Of a DNA stretch of 64,000 nucleotides, positions 1 to 39,310 are shown in pieces. The first letter of the stretch is position 1. Each line of letters starts with the position of its first letter. A model generated the notes under the pieces. It was given only the letters and a program-made list of their open reading frames with translations, was not told the origin of the DNA and made no database searches. The DNA is taken from the sequence record NC_054922.1. One strand, given 5' to 3'. The position numbers were made by a program, and so were the translations under genes. This DNA is from Escherichia phage vB_EcoM_KAW1E185.

Positions 1-1461
1 ACGCCAAGTAAATAAAAGAGCAATATCAATTCGTGCTTTTTCACCTTGACTGAATGAAGCATAACTAAAATCTTCACGACCACGGGATTTAATTGTCTCA
101 TTAAATTCTTCATCTAATGTAAACACATAATCCGCTTCCATTATTTTAAGATAATAGTTAATCTGCTTATTAAATAATGGAATGTACTTTTTAATAATAG
201 CACCTTTAATACCAGAATCTTTGAGCATATCAGTCAAAATTCCTCGGTGGTATTTTTCCATTACTAAATTAGTTTTTGTCTTAACAATTTTATCAAGTTC
301 TTCTTGAAGCAGTGCTATTTCATCAGCATGGTCAATAAACTCAGAAGATGCTTTTTCTATAGCCGCTTTAACTTTTTTAGCTTTATCTACCGTCGTGATT
401 AGAGATTGCTTTTTATTGCGAATATCATTTGCCAACGACTGCTGGGTTTTAATATTATCTCGGTATTCATCAACAAGAACTTTTAAATTATCACGATGTG
501 TTGAAAGCTGTTCAAACGAATGCGTGCATTCAGAAACTTTATCTTTAATTTTAGAAACAACTTTATCACCGGAACTTAATTGTGACAAACAGGTTGGACA
601 TAATCCACCTTCGTGATACATATTAATGACTTTATTATATGAGTCAATTTTTGATTTAATTAAAACTGCTTCTTGACCGATTTTATTAAATGCATCAGTC
701 GGGTCTTCATCCAAAACAATATTAACTAATCTTTCATTAGCTTCTTCTATTTCCGATTTTAGCGTTCTAGCTTCTTTTGCCAAATCATCGTACATATTTT
801 GCAGACGAGTAAGGTTGTCACCCGTTAATTTTTTCTGGCGTTCAACGTTATCATTATATATTTTAATTTGTTGGATAATACTATCTTTTTTAACATCAAG
901 CACTTGGTTCTGCGAATTTAATTCACGTATTAGTGCTTTATTAAGCTTATCCATTTCAGCTAATGTTCCTACCTCGAGCAGGTCTTCCACAAGCTTTCTT
1001 CGCGCAGGGGTCGACAAACCCATGAAAGGGGTATACCCTGCTGTACCAAGGACAACAATCTGCTTGAAACTGGCATATGACATTCCGATAAGCTGTTCAA
1101 ATTCTGCTTGGAAATCTTTACTGCTGGCAGATTCATTAAGACGTGTACCGTTAACGGTGATTTCGAAAACGTTTGGTTTTTGTCCTCTTTTGATATAGTA
1201 TTTTTTCTCATCATATTCCATCCACAGTTCAACTAAAAGTTCTTTCTTATTTGTGCTGTTTATTAATTGACCTTTCTTTACATCACGAAATGGCTTACCA
1301 AAAAGCCCAAATGTGATGGCTTCTAGCATAGTAGACTTACCACCGCCATTTCGGCCAGTAATAAGAGTTTTTTGAACCTTATCTAATTGAATGTCAATAG
1401 GATTTCCACCTACTGACATTATATTTTGATACCTAACTCGGTTTAGTTTAAAATTCTTCAC
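1..1461 (-). CDS. 46: Recombination endonuclease subunit gp46 (SbcC/Rad50-like ATPase), partial: N-terminal ~487 codons, C-terminus beyond window start
   Basis: Own reverse translation gives VKNFKLNRV...GRNGGGKST (Walker A); apparent GTG start at 1461 overlaps stop of upstream ORF (GTGA); ORF runs off window so absent from ORF track. Confidence 0.85.
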   Translation of the reverse strand, partial: MKNFKLNRVRYQNIMSVGGNPIDIQLDKVQKTLITGRNGGGKSTMLEAITFGLFGKPFRDVKKGQLINSTNKKELLVELWMEYDEKKYYIKRGQKPNVFEITVNGTRLNESASSKDFQAEFEQLIGMSYASFKQIVVLGTAGYTPFMGLSTPARRKLVEDLLEVGTLAEMDKLNKALIRELNSQNQVLDVKKDSIIQQIKIYNDNVERQKKLTGDNLTRLQNMYDDLAKEARTLKSEIEEANERLVNIVLDEDPTDAFNKIGQEAVLIKSKIDSYNKVINMYHEGGLCPTCLSQLSSGDKVVSKIKDKVSECTHSFEQLSTHRDNLKVLVDEYRDNIKTQQSLANDIRNKKQSLITTVDKAKKVKAAIEKASSEFIDHADEIALLQEELDKIVKTKTNLVMEKYHRGILTDMLKDSGIKGAIIKKYIPLFNKQINYYLKIMEADYVFTLDEEFNETIKSRGREDFSYASFSQGEKARIDIALLFTWR

Positions 1462-34986: not shown

Positions 34987-35015
34987 ATAGTACCATGGAA
35001 GAACGGGGATGTAAA
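34987..35015 (-). promoter_or_regulatory. Early promoter
   Basis: Minus strand TTTACA - 17 nt - TACTAT then ACAACTATC. Confidence 0.6.
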
Positions 35016-35137
35016 CCGTTTTGTGAAAAAAATTTTAAAAATTTTTAGGGAATTCTAGGGCGGGGATGGAAAATTAAAAGATAGGATAATATATTATAAA
35101 GGGTAGAAACTAAATGATGCCTAGAGAGGCCCAGAAA

Positions 35138-35166
35138 GGCCTAGATACCAAAAAGCCCCAACCGAA
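35138..35166 (-). terminator. Intrinsic terminator downstream of internal-protein gene
   Basis: Minus strand GCCCCAACC-UUUC-GGUUGGGGC followed by UUUUUGG. Confidence 0.75.
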
Positions 35167-35184
35167 AGGTTGGGGCTAAGAATG

Positions 35185-35658
35185 TTATTTGATTTGTTTA
35201 GCAGACCAAATGCGGTCTTTGATAATTTTTTGGATGTCTTCAACATATTCAAGAGAGTGAACATGTGGGTTATCTTTGAAACTATAAGCACGAGCTAGCT
35301 TTTGGCCTTCAGTTTTGATTACTAAAAGCTCTTTAAGGATAGCTTCATATTTGGAGATAATTCCTTTAACGATATTTTTCTCTTGTGTGACTTTAGGATC
35401 TGCTTTAGGAGCAGGTTTACCCGAAGCCTTTGCAAAAGCAGCGCCAGTAGCAACTAAACTTTTCCAGGCCATACTAACTGCATTCCCTGTAAATCCTTCG
35501 GCTTTCATATCACGAGCAAATTGGAATCGTGATTCATCGGAAGCATCTTTATAGGAATATTTACCCGCGGCAATGGCTGCTTTTGCGACAGCTTGAATTT
35601 CGGTGCTAGATGCTTCATTTAACACCGCTTCATTTAAAAATTGAGCATATGATTTCAT
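35185..35658 (-). CDS. Internal protein III-like capsid-targeted protein (157 aa from MKSYAQF)
   Basis: SD AGGAAA before ATG 35658; N-terminus MKSYAQFLNEA resembles the capsid targeting sequence; ORF-track 216-aa form overruns terminator and late promoter. Confidence 0.6.
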   Translation of the reverse strand: MKSYAQFLNEAVLNEASSTEIQAVAKAAIAAGKYSYKDASDESRFQFARDMKAEGFTGNAVSMAWKSLVATGAAFAKASGKPAPKADPKVTQEKNIVKGIISKYEAILKELLVIKTEGQKLARAYSFKDNPHVHSLEYVEDIQKIIKDRIWSAKQIK

Positions 35659-35696
35659 CTTATTTCCTGTTTTAATTTGTAGATTTAATATACTAA

Positions 35697-35704
35697 TATT
35701 TATA
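35697..35704 (-). promoter_or_regulatory. T4 late promoter
   Basis: Plus tatttata = minus TATAAATA, ~40 nt upstream of ATG. Confidence 0.6.
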
Positions 35705-35733
35705 CCAAAAAGCCCCAACCTTTCGGTCGGGGC
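35705..35733 (-). terminator. Intrinsic terminator ending the tRNA/stable-RNA transcription unit
   Basis: Minus strand GCCCCGACC-GAAA-GGUUGGGGC followed by UUUUUGG. Confidence 0.75.
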
Positions 35734-35744
35734 TAAGCCTTGCG

Positions 35745-36040
35745 GCAACCTTGTCGGGGTTCCACCTGCTAAGGCAAGTGTTTGTACGAAACGCCGGGAT
35801 TCGAACCCGGTTATTAAGTAGTTGACGCTACTCAATATTTTTAAAAGGCCATATCTCGACCATATCCGAACGTTCCGTCAAAAACGCTACTCGGCTTACG
35901 GCAAAGATATTTCCTCGAATCGATAATTCGGTGCGCCGTTTCTGCTGTGATGTAAGAGGGCATCAATAAACGCAAAGATTATTAACGCAATTCCTTACTC
36001 AGGGAACATCAGTCCGACGACTTACCGGTAGCGACCCGGT
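35745..36040 (-). ncRNA. Putative stable structured RNA(s) downstream of tRNA cluster (possible analogue of T4 species 1/2 RNAs)
   Basis: No credible ORF; tRNA-like T-arm CCGGGUUCGAAUCCCGG near 35795-35811 and several further stems; boundaries approximate. Confidence 0.35.
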
Positions 36041-36043
36041 TTC

Positions 36044-36394
36044 TTAATATTCTTTTAAAGCATCAATCTGTTTACGGCGTTCACGCCATAAATCAATTGC
36101 TTCATACGCGGATTCAGCATTTCGAATTAGCCGGCATTTATGTAAAGACTTATGATTTTGATATTGTGTAGATAACGGAATTTTATCTAAAAGGTCTTTA
36201 CGTTCAAAGTATTCGTAACCATCTAAGCCAAATGAACGATTTTTGAGAAATTGCCAATGACCAAATTCGTTTTGAATATAAATATAATCCGCATGTTGAT
36301 AAAGTAAATTAATTTCACGAAATGAGATATGTTTTTCATATTCATTGAAGTAAAATGTTAAATCATGAACTACTAAATAAACATTACCTTTCAT
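36044..36394 (-). CDS. Hypothetical protein (116 aa) inside the RNA gene region
   Basis: SD GAGGAAAA 5 nt upstream of ATG 36394. Confidence 0.5.
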   Translation of the reverse strand: MKGNVYLVVHDLTFYFNEYEKHISFREINLLYQHADYIYIQNEFGHWQFLKNRSFGLDGYEYFERKDLLDKIPLSTQYQNHKSLHKCRLIRNAESAYEAIDLWRERRKQIDALKEY

Positions 36395-36412
36395 ATTTTC
36401 CTCACTTATAAT

Positions 36413-36488
36413 TGGTCGAGGCAGTAGGGATCGAACCTACGACCTAGGACTTAGAAGGTCCTTGCTCTTCCTTCTGAGCTATGCCCCG
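36413..36488 (-). tRNA. tRNA-Arg (anticodon UCU)
   Basis: Hand-folded cloverleaf, 76 nt, encoded CCA; anticodon loop CUUCUAA. Confidence 0.8.
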
Positions 36489-36492
36489 TAAT

Positions 36493-36568
36493 TGGGGTGA
36501 CCGATGGGAGTCGAACCCATGACTACGAGAATCACAATCTCGAGTTCTACCAACTGAACTACGGCCAC
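36493..36568 (-). tRNA. tRNA-His (anticodon GUG), tentative
   Basis: Hand-folded cloverleaf, discriminator C, encoded CCA; anticodon loop UUGUGAU; no encoded G-1. Confidence 0.55.
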
Positions 36569-36682
36569 ATTAATACCTACTCCAACAATCAAGATGTCTT
36601 CACACGAAATTAAGAGAAGAGTGATCAGTTCAACCCCTATAATCGCGTCAAGTAGATATTAATGTGACAGTTGTCACAAATT

Positions 36683-36757
36683 TGGCGGACGTGATAGGAT
36701 TCGAACCTATAACCAATCGCTTAACAGGCGATCGCTCTGCCATTGAGCTACACATCC
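36683..36757 (-). tRNA. tRNA-Asn (anticodon GUU)
   Basis: Hand-folded cloverleaf, 75 nt; anticodon loop CUGUUAA. Confidence 0.75.
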
Positions 36758-36761
36758 AAAT

Positions 36762-36848
36762 TGGTGGGGAGTGGTGGAGTCGAACCACCCGAGTCGCAAT
36801 GACAATGAATTTACAGTCCACACCGCTACCTCTACGGGATAACTCCCC
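36762..36848 (-). tRNA. tRNA-Tyr (anticodon GUA), long variable arm
   Basis: 87 nt; anticodon loop CUGUAAA; stem has two G-U pairs. Confidence 0.6.
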
Positions 36849-36857
36849 AAATTAATT

Positions 36858-36932
36858 TGGTGGCCCTGGGTGGAATTGAACCACCATCTGGCGATTATGA
36901 GTCGCTTGCTTGAACCTTCCAGCTACAGGGCC
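36858..36932 (-). tRNA. tRNA with anticodon CAU (elongator Met or Ile2-lysidine type)
   Basis: 75 nt; anticodon loop CUCAUAA; G1-C72 pair argues against initiator. Confidence 0.7.
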
Positions 36933-36933
36933 T

Positions 36934-37009
36934 TGGTGCTGATTGACGGAATCGAACCGCCGACCTTCTCATTACAAGTGAGTTGCTCTACCTACTAAGC
37001 TAAATCAGC
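36934..37009 (-). tRNA. tRNA-Thr (anticodon UGU)
   Basis: 76 nt; anticodon loop CUUGUAA. Confidence 0.75.
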
Positions 37010-37014
37010 AAAAC

Positions 37015-37104
37015 TGGCGGAGGCGATAGGATTTGAACCTATGAGTCGCCGGAGCGACTGCCGGTTTTCAAGACCGGTGCATTAAACCACTCTGCCACGC
37101 CTCC
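37015..37104 (-). tRNA. tRNA-Ser (anticodon UGA), long variable arm
   Basis: 90 nt; anticodon loop CUUGAAA. Confidence 0.8.
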
Positions 37105-37110
37105 AAATAT

Positions 37111-37761
37111 TTATATATTGTTAATTTGATTTAGAATTCTTTTTGCTTGAGTATGACTTACGCCAATATGCTTAGCATATTTAGACAATTCGCCACGTTT
37201 AGAAAAATCATATAATTTAGAAATTTCTATTCTTCTTTTTCTTTCATCCGCAGAAACTTTTGCTTCGTTTGCTTTTGCTATTTTACGTTTAGCTTCTTGA
37301 GAATGAGTTTTACCAGCAAAGCCATTCTTCATTAATCCATTTGAAGACCATCCTTTTAATTTTCCGTTAGAATGTGCCTTTTTAACACCCAATGAAATTA
37401 ATTCGCGTTGCTGATCTGTCATAGGATAATTATTTATATGGTCCCATCCACCTTCACCTCCAAGTTTTAAATTATACACATCTGGTCTATTTAAAAACTC
37501 TTCTGTGACAATATTTTTCTCGGCTTCAAGCATAGATTCTTTATCGTCAAAATACTCTAATATTTCTTTAGAAAAATTTTCTATACCATATTTATCTTGG
37601 GCTCTTTTTAATAATTTACCAGAACCCATATATCCATCATCTAAATTTTCGGTAGAATGCACACCAATATAAATTTTATTATTAATTTTATTTGTTATTT
37701 TATAAAGATAAAAATGCATATCAGTCCCTAATAAAGAACTGAGCGTCTCACGACGAGTCAT
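37111..37761 (-). CDS. segB: GIY-YIG homing endonuclease (SegB-like) inserted within the tRNA cluster
   Basis: 216 aa; FYLYKITN...KIYIGV GIY-YIG motif; basic C-terminal DNA-binding tail; flanked by tRNA genes. Confidence 0.8.
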   Translation of the reverse strand: MTRRETLSSLLGTDMHFYLYKITNKINNKIYIGVHSTENLDDGYMGSGKLLKRAQDKYGIENFSKEILEYFDDKESMLEAEKNIVTEEFLNRPDVYNLKLGGEGGWDHINNYPMTDQQRELISLGVKKAHSNGKLKGWSSNGLMKNGFAGKTHSQEAKRKIAKANEAKVSADERKRRIEISKLYDFSKRGELSKYAKHIGVSHTQAKRILNQINNI

Positions 37762-37765
37762 AAAT

Positions 37766-37839
<74 letters not shown>

Positions 37840-37844
37840 AAATT

Positions 37845-37931
37845 TGGTGCGAGAAGTGGGACTCGAACCCACAAGGAAATCATTCCGCAGCATTTTAAGT
37901 GCTGTGCCTTTACCAATTTGACCATTCTCGC
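37845..37931 (-). tRNA. tRNA-Leu (anticodon UAA), long variable arm
   Basis: 87 nt; anticodon loop CUUAAAA. Confidence 0.8.
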
Positions 37932-38005
37932 GCTGGGAATAAAGGACTCGAACCTTTGCATCTAGCAGTCAAAGTGCTATGCCTTACCAACTTGGCTAAT
38001 TCCCA
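37932..38005 (-). tRNA. tRNA-Gln (anticodon UUG), CCA not fully encoded
   Basis: Anticodon loop CUUUGAC; abuts tRNA-Leu. Confidence 0.75.
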
Positions 38006-38091
38006 ATTATTAACAAAGGCTCTCAAACAAGAACCCTTGATGATAGAGGGTATTAATCAGTGCGGTATGAGTTAATAATAACAAATAATTC

Positions 38092-38607
38092 TTAAAGCAA
38101 ATTAAACATTTTAACGGTCGGCAAAACAATTTCTTCTTCTATATAAGAGTATTTAACACTCTCAACTACACGCAAAAAATCATAATCATAATACTCAGAA
38201 GCATTACCTAAAATATTAATAAGTCCTTCAAGCACTTTATTACCATTCACAAAGAATAAGTCAAATACGCGTTCTTCGTCTTCTTCGGATTTATTACCAA
38301 GGTCAACTTCTATATCAAAGACCTTTTTAATGAATTCTGGATAAAGTTGTTCTGAGAACAGTCCTTCAACCAAGTATTCATAAATAAAAAGCGATTGCTC
38401 GCTGAACAAGCCATTACCACAATAACGTTCAGCTTTAGTACTAGAATGTCTACTTTTAAACTTCTTTAAAAGATATTGAAATTGTAAGATTTCATGCTCT
38501 TCTACGCCAAACAGTGTTTTAGTTTTATAGTTGTCACCATCATTTTCCCAGGTAGTGGCATCAATTACGTAACCCTGTGGAATTGTAGTACCTAAACAAA
38601 TATTCAT
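38092..38607 (-). CDS. Hypothetical acidic protein (171 aa)
   Basis: ORF track. Confidence 0.5.
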   Translation of the reverse strand: MNICLGTTIPQGYVIDATTWENDGDNYKTKTLFGVEEHEILQFQYLLKKFKSRHSSTKAERYCGNGLFSEQSLFIYEYLVEGLFSEQLYPEFIKKVFDIEVDLGNKSEEDEERVFDLFFVNGNKVLEGLINILGNASEYYDYDFLRVVESVKYSYIEEEIVLPTVKMFNLL

Positions 38608-38897
38608 TTGCTCACCATATTAATGTAAGTATATTCAATACATTCAAGACCCAAAGGATTCTTGAAAATATCATATTCAAGAGGACCTTTTTCCGTTTCA
38701 ATAAAGAAATCAAAATTTACTGTATTAAATTTACGGTCTTCCTTCACTAATTTAACCTGAGAAGATGAACGGTCAATGTAAACCTTTTCAACTTCAAAAC
38801 ATGTTAAAATGCCATAATCATCAATCAAGGCTTTAGCTGCTTCTTGATCATATTTATATCCATTTTCAATGGATGATACTTTAGCATAAAGAATCAT
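38604..38897 (-). CDS. Hypothetical protein (97 aa)
   Basis: ORF track; 4-nt overlap. Confidence 0.5.
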   Translation of the reverse strand: MILYAKVSSIENGYKYDQEAAKALIDDYGILTCFEVEKVYIDRSSSQVKLVKEDRKFNTVNFDFFIETEKGPLEYDIFKNPLGLECIEYTYINMVSK

Positions 38898-38899
38898 TA

Positions 38900-39310
38900 T
38901 CAGCCTCTATCAACGATAGCATGAGTATGGGCATTTACGATTTGCCACCAGTCGAAACGATTGGAACCATAATCTGGTTTATTTTCATTTTCTTTAATGA
39001 TATCACGCAGTTTATCTTCTGTTTCAGCATACGCAATTAAATCATCATATCCGCCACAAGGATAATAATTATCACCTGCGAATAAAAGAAAATTTACCTT
39101 AGATGGATTTACGTAATAATGGTCTTTAGGATATTTAGTTCCTCTCCAATCAGTTACTTCAACATAACGGTAAGAAAATCCATTTTTACTTTCAATCCAA
39201 CTCCACGCTTCAAAAGGAGTATTAAAAACTTTATCAGGTATTAAATTACCTTCAAAATGAGAAGGATTTGCATAATCCCCGGCATAAACATAATATTCGT
39301 TAATACTCAT
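38900..39310 (-). CDS. Hypothetical protein (136 aa)
   Basis: ORF track. Confidence 0.5.
   Translation of the reverse strand: MSINEYYVYAGDYANPSHFEGNLIPDKVFNTPFEAWSWIESKNGFSYRYVEVTDWRGTKYPKDHYYVNPSKVNFLLFAGDNYYPCGGYDDLIAYAETEDKLRDIIKENENKPDYGSNRFDWWQIVNAHTHAIVDRG

Follow-up and report, generated by a model that had tools for sequence, protein, structure and literature searches.

The tRNA cluster of vB_EcoM_KAW1E185

Escherichia phage vB_EcoM_KAW1E185 carries, within a cluster of tRNA genes, a gene for a SegB-like endonuclease of the GIY-YIG type, which is the subject of this report. The sequence analysed, referred to here as the window, is the whole of a 64,000 nucleotide (nt) stretch of this phage (NC_054922.1). 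By its sequence the phage is placed in the genus Tequatrovirus, and the 1.9 kb surrounding the open reading frame (ORF) of interest are 98–99% identical to the Tequatroviruses vB_Eco_QOTSP, KIT03, RB18 and AR1. Between 36413 and 38005 ARAGORN calls ten minus-strand tRNA genes, and in the order of transcription the cluster reads Gln-Leu-Gly-(GIY-YIG ORF)-Ser-Thr-Met(CAU)-Tyr-Asn-His-Arg. An Rfam search of positions 35000–39000 returned tRNAs only, and all window features described below are on the minus strand.

The gap between tRNA-Gly and tRNA-Ser is 661 nt long and contains a single long ORF (37111–37761) of 216 amino acids (aa). A preliminary description of this DNA had located a GIY-YIG ORF between these two tRNA genes, which is confirmed by the ARAGORN calls together with the position of the ORF. 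The upstream neighbour, tRNA-Gly(UCC) (37766–37839), also recovered by the Rfam tRNA model, is 100% identical to that of T4 and encodes its CCA end, followed by an A (CCAA). The downstream neighbour is a T2-type tRNA-Ser(UGA) (37015–37104), called by both ARAGORN and Rfam and separated from the stop codon by a 6-nt spacer, ATATTT (37105–37110), with similarity to T4 and T2 restarting at its first nucleotide. The CCA of this tRNA is encoded in the window (…CTCCGCCAG, 37015–37017), as it is in T2L, but not in the tRNA-Ser of T4 (…CTCCGTAA).

Start codon, leader and expression

The translation start is probably not the first ATG of the ORF but Met15 (37719), giving a 202-aa coding sequence (37111–37719) preceded by a 46-nt untranslated leader (37720–37765), in which the first 14 codons of the longest ORF lie and are probably untranslated. 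This start was taken because Met1 of T4 SegB aligns with Met15, because T6 SegB begins MHFYLYKITN, exactly as the ORF does from Met15, because an AGGGA Shine–Dalgarno sequence (37725–37729) lies 5 nt before the Met15 ATG while none precedes the first ATG, and because the records of RB51, slur07 and CM8 in GenBank annotate the 202-aa form. The first ATG (37759–37761) adjoins tRNA-Gly and its coding status is not conserved; in the Jiaodavirus orthologues it is replaced by a GTG, put out of frame by a 1-nt indel and running into a TGA. A 216-aa protein beginning 4 nt past tRNA-Gly was dropped in favour of the Met15 start. The spacings of 5 and 7 nt given previously for the two ends of the gene hold as differences between coordinates, corresponding to 4 and 6 intervening nucleotides, although the real start is probably 46 nt from tRNA-Gly.

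The leader consists of an ATTTA spacer followed by a segment reading TGACTCG...CTGAT. It differs from the T6 segB leader at 1 nt, and is 87% identical to the leaders of two Jiaodavirus relatives used throughout this comparison, namely the Klebsiella Jiaodavirus Mineola (CPT_Mineola_142) and P0002, a set of metagenomic, Jiaodavirus-like contigs. The T4 segB leader (T4 locus extract L001, 3420–3460) is unrelated to the leader shared by T6 and the window (39% identity to the latter), despite a near-identical coding sequence from codon 5 onwards. Two hairpins are predicted in the window leader, a small one of the GNRA type and one of 9 bp (37721–37742) that could bury the AGGGA sequence, the latter being kept in Mineola by one-sided changes. 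A second analysis picked the hairpin up as well. The hairpin that the T4 segB leader forms over its Shine–Dalgarno sequence and AUG is much stronger (−19.4 kcal/mol, z −6.2). That the leader might derive by decay from the 5′ half of a tRNA-Pro was considered and rejected: the p=0.0024 of an initial test was obtained with the shared spacer included, with the spacer excluded the value was p=0.036 and tRNA-Gln scored equally well, and the Mineola leader compared with its own tRNA-Pro gave p=0.44.

A scan for sigma-70 promoters revealed no excess of sites. A perfect copy of the T4 late-promoter motif TATAAATA overlies the stop codon (37108–37115), 3 nt before tRNA-Ser, and was treated as probably a chance occurrence, since the 14 copies present in the window are no enrichment over the 10.75 expected by chance and this one is too close to tRNA-Ser. 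Expression of the endonuclease is probably low. The gene would have no promoter of its own and would be embedded in the tRNA precursor transcript, the leader hairpin may hide the Shine–Dalgarno sequence and limit translation, and maturation of tRNA-Ser by RNase P would sever the transcript 6 nt past the stop codon, leaving a 6-nt 3′ tail.

A GIY-YIG endonuclease of the SegB branch

The identity of the product as a GIY-YIG endonuclease, claimed from inspection of the ORF, is borne out by several comparisons. The protein matches the GIY-YIG family of Pfam (PF01541) with 26.8 bits against a gathering threshold of 22.6, PF19835 with 25.8 bits against a cutoff of 25, and the "homing endonuclease" group PHROG 314 at 1.5e-55, while NUMOD3 falls just below its cutoff (20.1 against 20.4 bits) and HTH_10 reaches an E-value of 0.055. 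An AlphaFold2 model built on an alignment of 38 sequences has a mean predicted local distance difference test (pLDDT) score of 86.5. Residues 1–90 form an N-terminal alpha/beta domain (pLDDT about 89–97) for which the best Foldseek matches in the PDB are the domain responsible for catalysis in I-TevI, the endonuclease of the T4 td intron (1MK0 and 1LN0; probability 1.0, target TM-score 0.61–0.64). A low-confidence linker follows, and then confident helices at 141–152, 157–167, 177–185 and 189–201, whose matches to helix–turn–helix (HTH) folds are weak (probability up to 0.54). Tyr6, Tyr17, Gly19, Glu67 and Asn83 are invariant across the 38 homologues, and the double substitution Y17A/G19A abolishes the activity of T6 SegB (PMC13096335). 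A phmmer search against PDB sequences gave no match, nor did a search of proteins in which the query was restricted to the C-terminal half, the relatives being found by the full-length search. On these grounds the gene is classed as a free-standing GIY-YIG homing endonuclease of the SegB branch.

The ORF has already been annotated in close records as "segB", "SegB-like", "truncated SegB-like" or, wrongly, "segD", and is therefore not new to databases; we found no paper in the literature discussing it under the name "SegB-like".

Mosaic structure of the gene

Two portions of the 202-aa protein can be distinguished. The catalytic GIY-YIG module (aa 5–97; 37429–37707) is the part that resembles segB and the I-TevI fold. 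The putative DNA-binding half (37114–37428) comprises the linker, a NUMOD3-like helix (about 37276–37320) and a probable C-terminal three-helix HTH (about 37117–37251). BLASTP aligns aa 15–131 of the ORF with aa 1–117 of T4 SegB (NP_049745) only, the remainder being unrelated, and the alignment with T4 SegB that had been proposed for this gene yields a divided answer, with a near-identical catalytic part and an unrelated C-terminal half.

This division is sharper at the nucleotide level. The catalytic module is 97.8% identical to T4 segB, as against 71% to P0002 and 72% to Mineola, while the sequence encoding aa 98–198 is 46–50% identical (unrelated) to T4 segB (35–50% in a further comparison of this part), 85–89% identical to P0002 and, depending on the segment, 39–88% identical to Mineola, reaching 88% over aa 161–198. 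Synonymous divergence (dS) in the catalytic module is 0.039 against T4 segB, 1.84 against Mineola and 1.95 against P0002, and in the C-terminal half it is 0.455 against P0002. The ratio of nonsynonymous to synonymous divergence (dN/dS) between the DNA-binding halves of the window and P0002 is 0.17, which points to purifying selection on this half. T6 segB shares with the window the leader, the first codons and the catalytic module, and has a C-terminal half of the T4 type. The breakpoints fall within sequences encoding the conserved motifs YKITNKIN and GGEGGWDH, and the gene reads as a T6-type leader and catalytic cassette joined to a Jiaodavirus-type DNA-binding half. The ORF is intact in the carriers examined, RB18, RB51, slur07 and CM8.

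The endonuclease gene and tRNA-Pro as alternatives at one slot

The T4 locus has the order Gln-Leu-Gly-Pro-Ser-Thr-Ile-segB-Arg, with tRNA-Pro between tRNA-Gly and tRNA-Ser as the preliminary description had it, and T2 has the order Gln-Leu-Gly-Pro-Ser-ORF-Met-Tyr-Asn-Arg. When the window is aligned with T4 the tRNA-Gly and tRNA-Ser sequences are identical, the similarity ends 5 nt past the CCA of tRNA-Gly, and it restarts exactly at nt 1 of tRNA-Ser. Between these limits T4 has 81 nt (spacer, tRNA-Pro and CT) and the window 657 nt.

The distribution of the two arrangements was followed in a collection of 50,697 GenBank phage records. A contiguous Gly-Pro-Ser junction occurs in 439 of them, with tRNA-Pro sequences diverging down to 88%, and the T4 and T2 flanks of these endonuclease-free junctions are identical to those of the window; this is the comparison with endonuclease-free phages that the preliminary description had called for. 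The C-terminal half of the window gene is found in about 55 records, the copies in carrier Tequatroviruses being 97.5–100% identical. When a synthetic query was built with the 3′ end of the endonuclease gene placed before tRNA-Pro and tRNA-Ser, not one of the 623 records matching it covered 80% or more. Among the matches listed, the 30 endonuclease-positive entries each match at a single place with the Pro segment alone missing, and no displaced copy of tRNA-Pro was found with this query among those entries, which argues that tRNA-Pro was lost rather than moved. Of the proposal that the insertion is tied to loss or displacement of a tRNA gene, it is loss that stands and displacement that falls away.

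Had the same tRNA order been found with neither the endonuclease nor tRNA-Pro, the proposed association would have been undermined, but a 64-nt query for a direct Gly-Ser junction retrieved no record at E≤1e-9, and in a control at E≤0.01 both halves of this query were matched in 507 records. Exact-pattern scans of IMG/VR for a direct Gly-Ser junction and for tRNA-Gly followed by the leader also found none, and carry little weight since their positive control (Gly-N70-100-Ser) found one contig. Taken on their distribution, the window gene and tRNA-Pro are alternative alleles of one slot in Tequatroviruses. The carrier genomes vary elsewhere in the cluster, with or without tRNA-His, tRNA-Tyr and tRNA-Asn, or tRNA-Gln, which suggests that the cassette moves between backgrounds.

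T6 has neither tRNA-Pro nor an endonuclease in the Gly-Ser slot. In its place is a Pro/Thr fusion scar in which tRNA-Ser has been deleted too: the gene called "tRNA-Thr" in T6 (AP018814, locus extract 643–728, minus strand) is a hybrid in which the 5′ end of tRNA-Pro (CTCCGTGTAGCTCAGT) passes, within the D-arm, into the remainder of tRNA-Thr, so that the 3′ part of tRNA-Pro, tRNA-Ser and the 5′ part of tRNA-Thr are missing. The hybrid is not called by ARAGORN and is therefore probably a pseudo-tRNA, and the loss of tRNA-Pro in T6 is best read as a separate, independent event.

Relatives of the gene at tRNA-Pro in other phages

In Mineola and in the P0002 contigs the gene is flanked by tRNA-Gly and tRNA-Pro, with its stop codon at nt 8–10 of tRNA-Pro, so that RNase P processing of this tRNA would remove the stop codon from the message. 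Endonuclease-less Jiaodaviruses such as KpV477 and JD18 (121 records, against about 17 occupied sites) read Gly-CCA-AATTA-Pro, and the cassette is therefore seen as a clean insertion into the 5-nt Gly/Pro spacer. The coexistence of tRNA-Gly, endonuclease and tRNA-Pro in these phages means that insertion alone does not force the loss of a tRNA. The stop codon of the window ORF has the same position as that of P0002, and the last 10 nt of the window ORF, CAATATATAA (37111–37120), compared with nt 1–10 of the P0002 tRNA-Pro, CAGTGCGTAG, show five identities and five GC-to-AT transitions. These 10 nt are a possible decayed remnant of tRNA-Pro nt 1–10, a suggestive match, and this thin evidence is consistent with descent of the window allele from a Gly/endonuclease/Pro arrangement with subsequent loss of the rest of tRNA-Pro.

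The genomic context was examined for 13 full-length relatives (43–78% identity, with the same "VSHTQ-RR" C-terminus). Nine of these have tRNA-Pro(UGG) as their closest tRNA gene, in the arrangements Gly/endonuclease/Pro (two relatives), Pro/endonuclease/Gln (one), Pro/endonuclease/Ala (five) and Pro(UGG)/endonuclease/Pro(CGG) (one). The remaining four lie beside tRNA-Met, tRNA-Ala or tRNA-Trp, or antisense between tRNA-Phe and tRNA-Ser. The count of nine may be inflated by shared ancestry of gene order, but the flanks on the far side vary. In contigs resembling Erwinia phage FBB1 the longest ORF begins at an ATG of the tRNA-Pro 3′ acceptor strand (ATGGAGACCA), and in locus extract L021 the GGAG of ATGGAGACCA is at Shine–Dalgarno distance from the called TTG start.

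Proposed homing mechanism and its target

T4 SegB is a site-specific endonuclease whose recognition sequence in tRNA genes runs from TpsiC to CCA and whose cut falls immediately past CCAR, with a preference for the tRNA-Asn of T2L, and in crosses its own region is inherited at near 100% while T2L tRNA markers are lost (PMC2330249). T6 SegB, which requires Tyr17 and Gly19, cuts within the tRNA genes (PMC13096335). T6 segB lies between tRNA-Tyr and tRNA-Arg (T6 locus extract L025, 957–1668), where T2 has tRNA-Asn (extract L005, 1142–1307), and the T4/T6-type enzyme thus stands in place of its preferred target gene.

We consider it likely that the window gene encodes a domain-swapped sibling of SegB and that, through homing, it takes the place of tRNA-Pro. 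When endonuclease-less and carrier genomes meet in a mixed infection, the enzyme would break both strands of the former at or close to tRNA-Pro or the Gly-Pro junction, and recombinational repair from the carrier would copy the endonuclease gene in. Since the donor has no tRNA-Pro, repair would also erase that of the recipient, and the carrier genome would be immune because its target is absent, or split as in the Jiaodaviruses. Cutting at or near tRNA-Pro is inferred from the combination of a shared catalytic cassette with a different DNA-binding half, from the occupation of the tRNA-Pro slot, and from the clustering of relatives at tRNA-Pro. That the target lies within tRNA-Pro itself is a narrower claim, to which we give slightly less than even confidence.

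Several observations weigh against this account or against its choice of target. The tRNA-Pro of the carrier Mineola is identical to that of endonuclease-less relatives, so that a target wholly inside tRNA-Pro would expose Mineola to cleavage by its own enzyme, and the relatives could lie near tRNA-Pro through shared gene-order ancestry instead of target specificity. Another candidate target is the 3′ end of tRNA-Gly, which lies upstream: compared with GGTTCRANTCC...CCAR, the consensus published for T4 SegB, its TpsiC...CCAA segment has two mismatches in the window and none in Mineola, and the cassette starts where SegB would cut. T6 demonstrates that tRNA-Pro can be lost without the window gene. 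Finally, the leader, at a predicted −14.5 kcal/mol (z about −1.7 to −2.0), folds only weakly better than shuffled sequence.

Alternative explanations

The gene could instead be mainly an anti-defence amplifier, in which breaks in the phage's own tRNA cluster would seed tandem amplification of neighbouring tRNA genes when a host defence targets tRNA, as with T6 SegB. T6 SegB drives amplification of tRNA-Tyr and segB allowing escape from Septu, for which its nuclease activity is required (PMC13096335), and the leader and catalytic module of the window gene are near-identical to T6 segB at the nucleotide level. Its DNA-binding half, however, is unlike that of T6 SegB, so that its choice of site may differ, and sporadic presence and absence at one slot is the signature of homing. 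We think a predominantly amplifying role unlikely, although amplification and homing are not mutually exclusive.

Less probable still is that the gene is a resident relic, tRNA-Pro having been lost by an unrelated deletion or by illegitimate recombination when the cassette arrived, with homing since ended and the mutual exclusivity reflecting the clonal descent of a single RB18/AR1-like lineage. The 97.5–100% identity among carrier copies is compatible with a single recent origin, T6 shows that tRNA genes of the cluster can be deleted through recombination between tRNAs, and under laboratory conditions phages can do without their tRNA genes (PMC2330249). A relic is harder to reconcile with an ORF that is intact in all four carriers named above, with invariant catalytic residues, with the low dN/dS of the DNA-binding half, and with the differences among carriers in the rest of the cluster, which suggest movement of the cassette between backgrounds.

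The reverse course, with the endonuclease allele as the ancestral state and a later gain of tRNA-Pro in the T4 and T2 lineages, is highly improbable: distribution by itself does not formally establish polarity, but nothing specific supports this order of events, whereas tRNA-Pro is the majority state at the slot with sequences diverging down to 88%, the same gene family is sporadically inserted into the 5-nt Gly/Pro spacer of another genus, and orthologous ORFs end inside tRNA-Pro at the position where the window ORF ends with its possible 10-nt remnant.

Other gene-for-tRNA substitutions in the cluster

Shigella phage CM8, which also carries the SegB-like gene, has after tRNA-Leu a 202-aa ORF (locus extract 1974–2582) annotated as an HNH endonuclease (Pfam HNH E-value 0.005, below the cutoff). 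This is the position of tRNA-Gln in the window and in T4, ARAGORN finds no tRNA-Gln in the CM8 locus, and the ORF looks like a second endonuclease in a tRNA slot. In T2 a 133-aa ORF without a Pfam match (locus extract 1401–1802) lies between tRNA-Ser and tRNA-Met, at the position held by tRNA-Thr in the window and T4, and is another gene-for-tRNA substitution. The 114 nt of the window that separate tRNA-His from tRNA-Asn (36569–36682) match no Rfam entry and contain neither an ORF nor a tRNA; RB18 has both tRNA-His and these 114 nt, whereas RB51 and slur07 have neither, tRNA-Asn there abutting tRNA-Arg.

Relation to known systems and significance

The closest counterparts of the window gene are T6 segB (AP018814, EcT6_00127), with which it shares essentially the whole of its leader, first codons and catalytic module, and T4 segB. 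These genes are all free-standing, placed just past the CCA end of a tRNA gene and co-oriented with the tRNA operon, and each carrier allele is without a tRNA gene that is present in the endonuclease-less allele, tRNA-Asn for T6 and T4 and tRNA-Pro for the window. They differ in that the C-terminal DNA-binding half of the window protein (about 105 aa) is unrelated, and in their position, which is between Gly and Ser in the window, Tyr and Arg in T6, and Ile and Arg in T4. The window gene is not a strict orthologue of segB, because both the DNA-binding half and the location upstream of tRNA-Arg fail to correspond, and it is best described on present comparisons as a SegB paralogue or chimera.

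The likeness to the Mineola and P0002 genes lies in the leader, in the probable C-terminal HTH (88–89% identity), in insertion right after the CCA of tRNA-Gly, in sporadic presence among close relatives and, for P0002, in the length of 202 aa. The Jiaodavirus genes differ in their catalytic module (about 71% nucleotide identity) and in keeping tRNA-Pro downstream with the stop codon inside it, and the linker of Mineola is longer by an insertion of about 20 aa. The predicted layout of a GIY-YIG domain, flexible linker, putative NUMOD3-type helix and probable C-terminal HTH resembles that of I-TevI, the structural archetype of the family, although the window gene stands free instead of lying in an intron, no zinc finger was detected in it, and the similarity is below detection by phmmer against PDB sequences.

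A general link of SegB homologues with tRNA genes (PMC13096335) and the removal of tRNA genes by homing (PMC2330249) have already been published, and the window gene is ordinary mobile-gene biology rather than a new kind of element. What is, to our knowledge, undescribed is the specific replacement of tRNA-Pro by this variant, its modular relation to T6 segB and to the Jiaodavirus Gly/Pro endonucleases, and the parallel between the Asn and Pro slots. The proposed mechanism predicts that the 202-aa protein would cut T2 or T4 DNA in or next to tRNA-Pro and drive the replacement of that gene in crosses, paralleling T4 SegB and tRNA-Asn. As a natural domain swap relative to T6 SegB, the gene also offers a comparison of two enzymes that would show which half sets specificity for a tRNA gene.

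More tentatively, the SegB types may form a modular kit, in which a shared leader and catalytic cassette is combined with interchangeable DNA-binding halves, each matched to one tRNA gene and each homing into and erasing that gene (tRNA-Asn for T4 and T6, tRNA-Pro here); we regard this as possible, if on balance doubtful. The replacement described here helps to explain why near-identical T-even phages differ in their sets of tRNAs. Phage tRNAs counter host defences that cleave tRNAs (PMC13096335), and such differences matter given this role. If the modular arrangement were true, the tRNA repertoire of T-even phages would be continually rewritten by competing nuclease gene drives, and not by translational selection alone.

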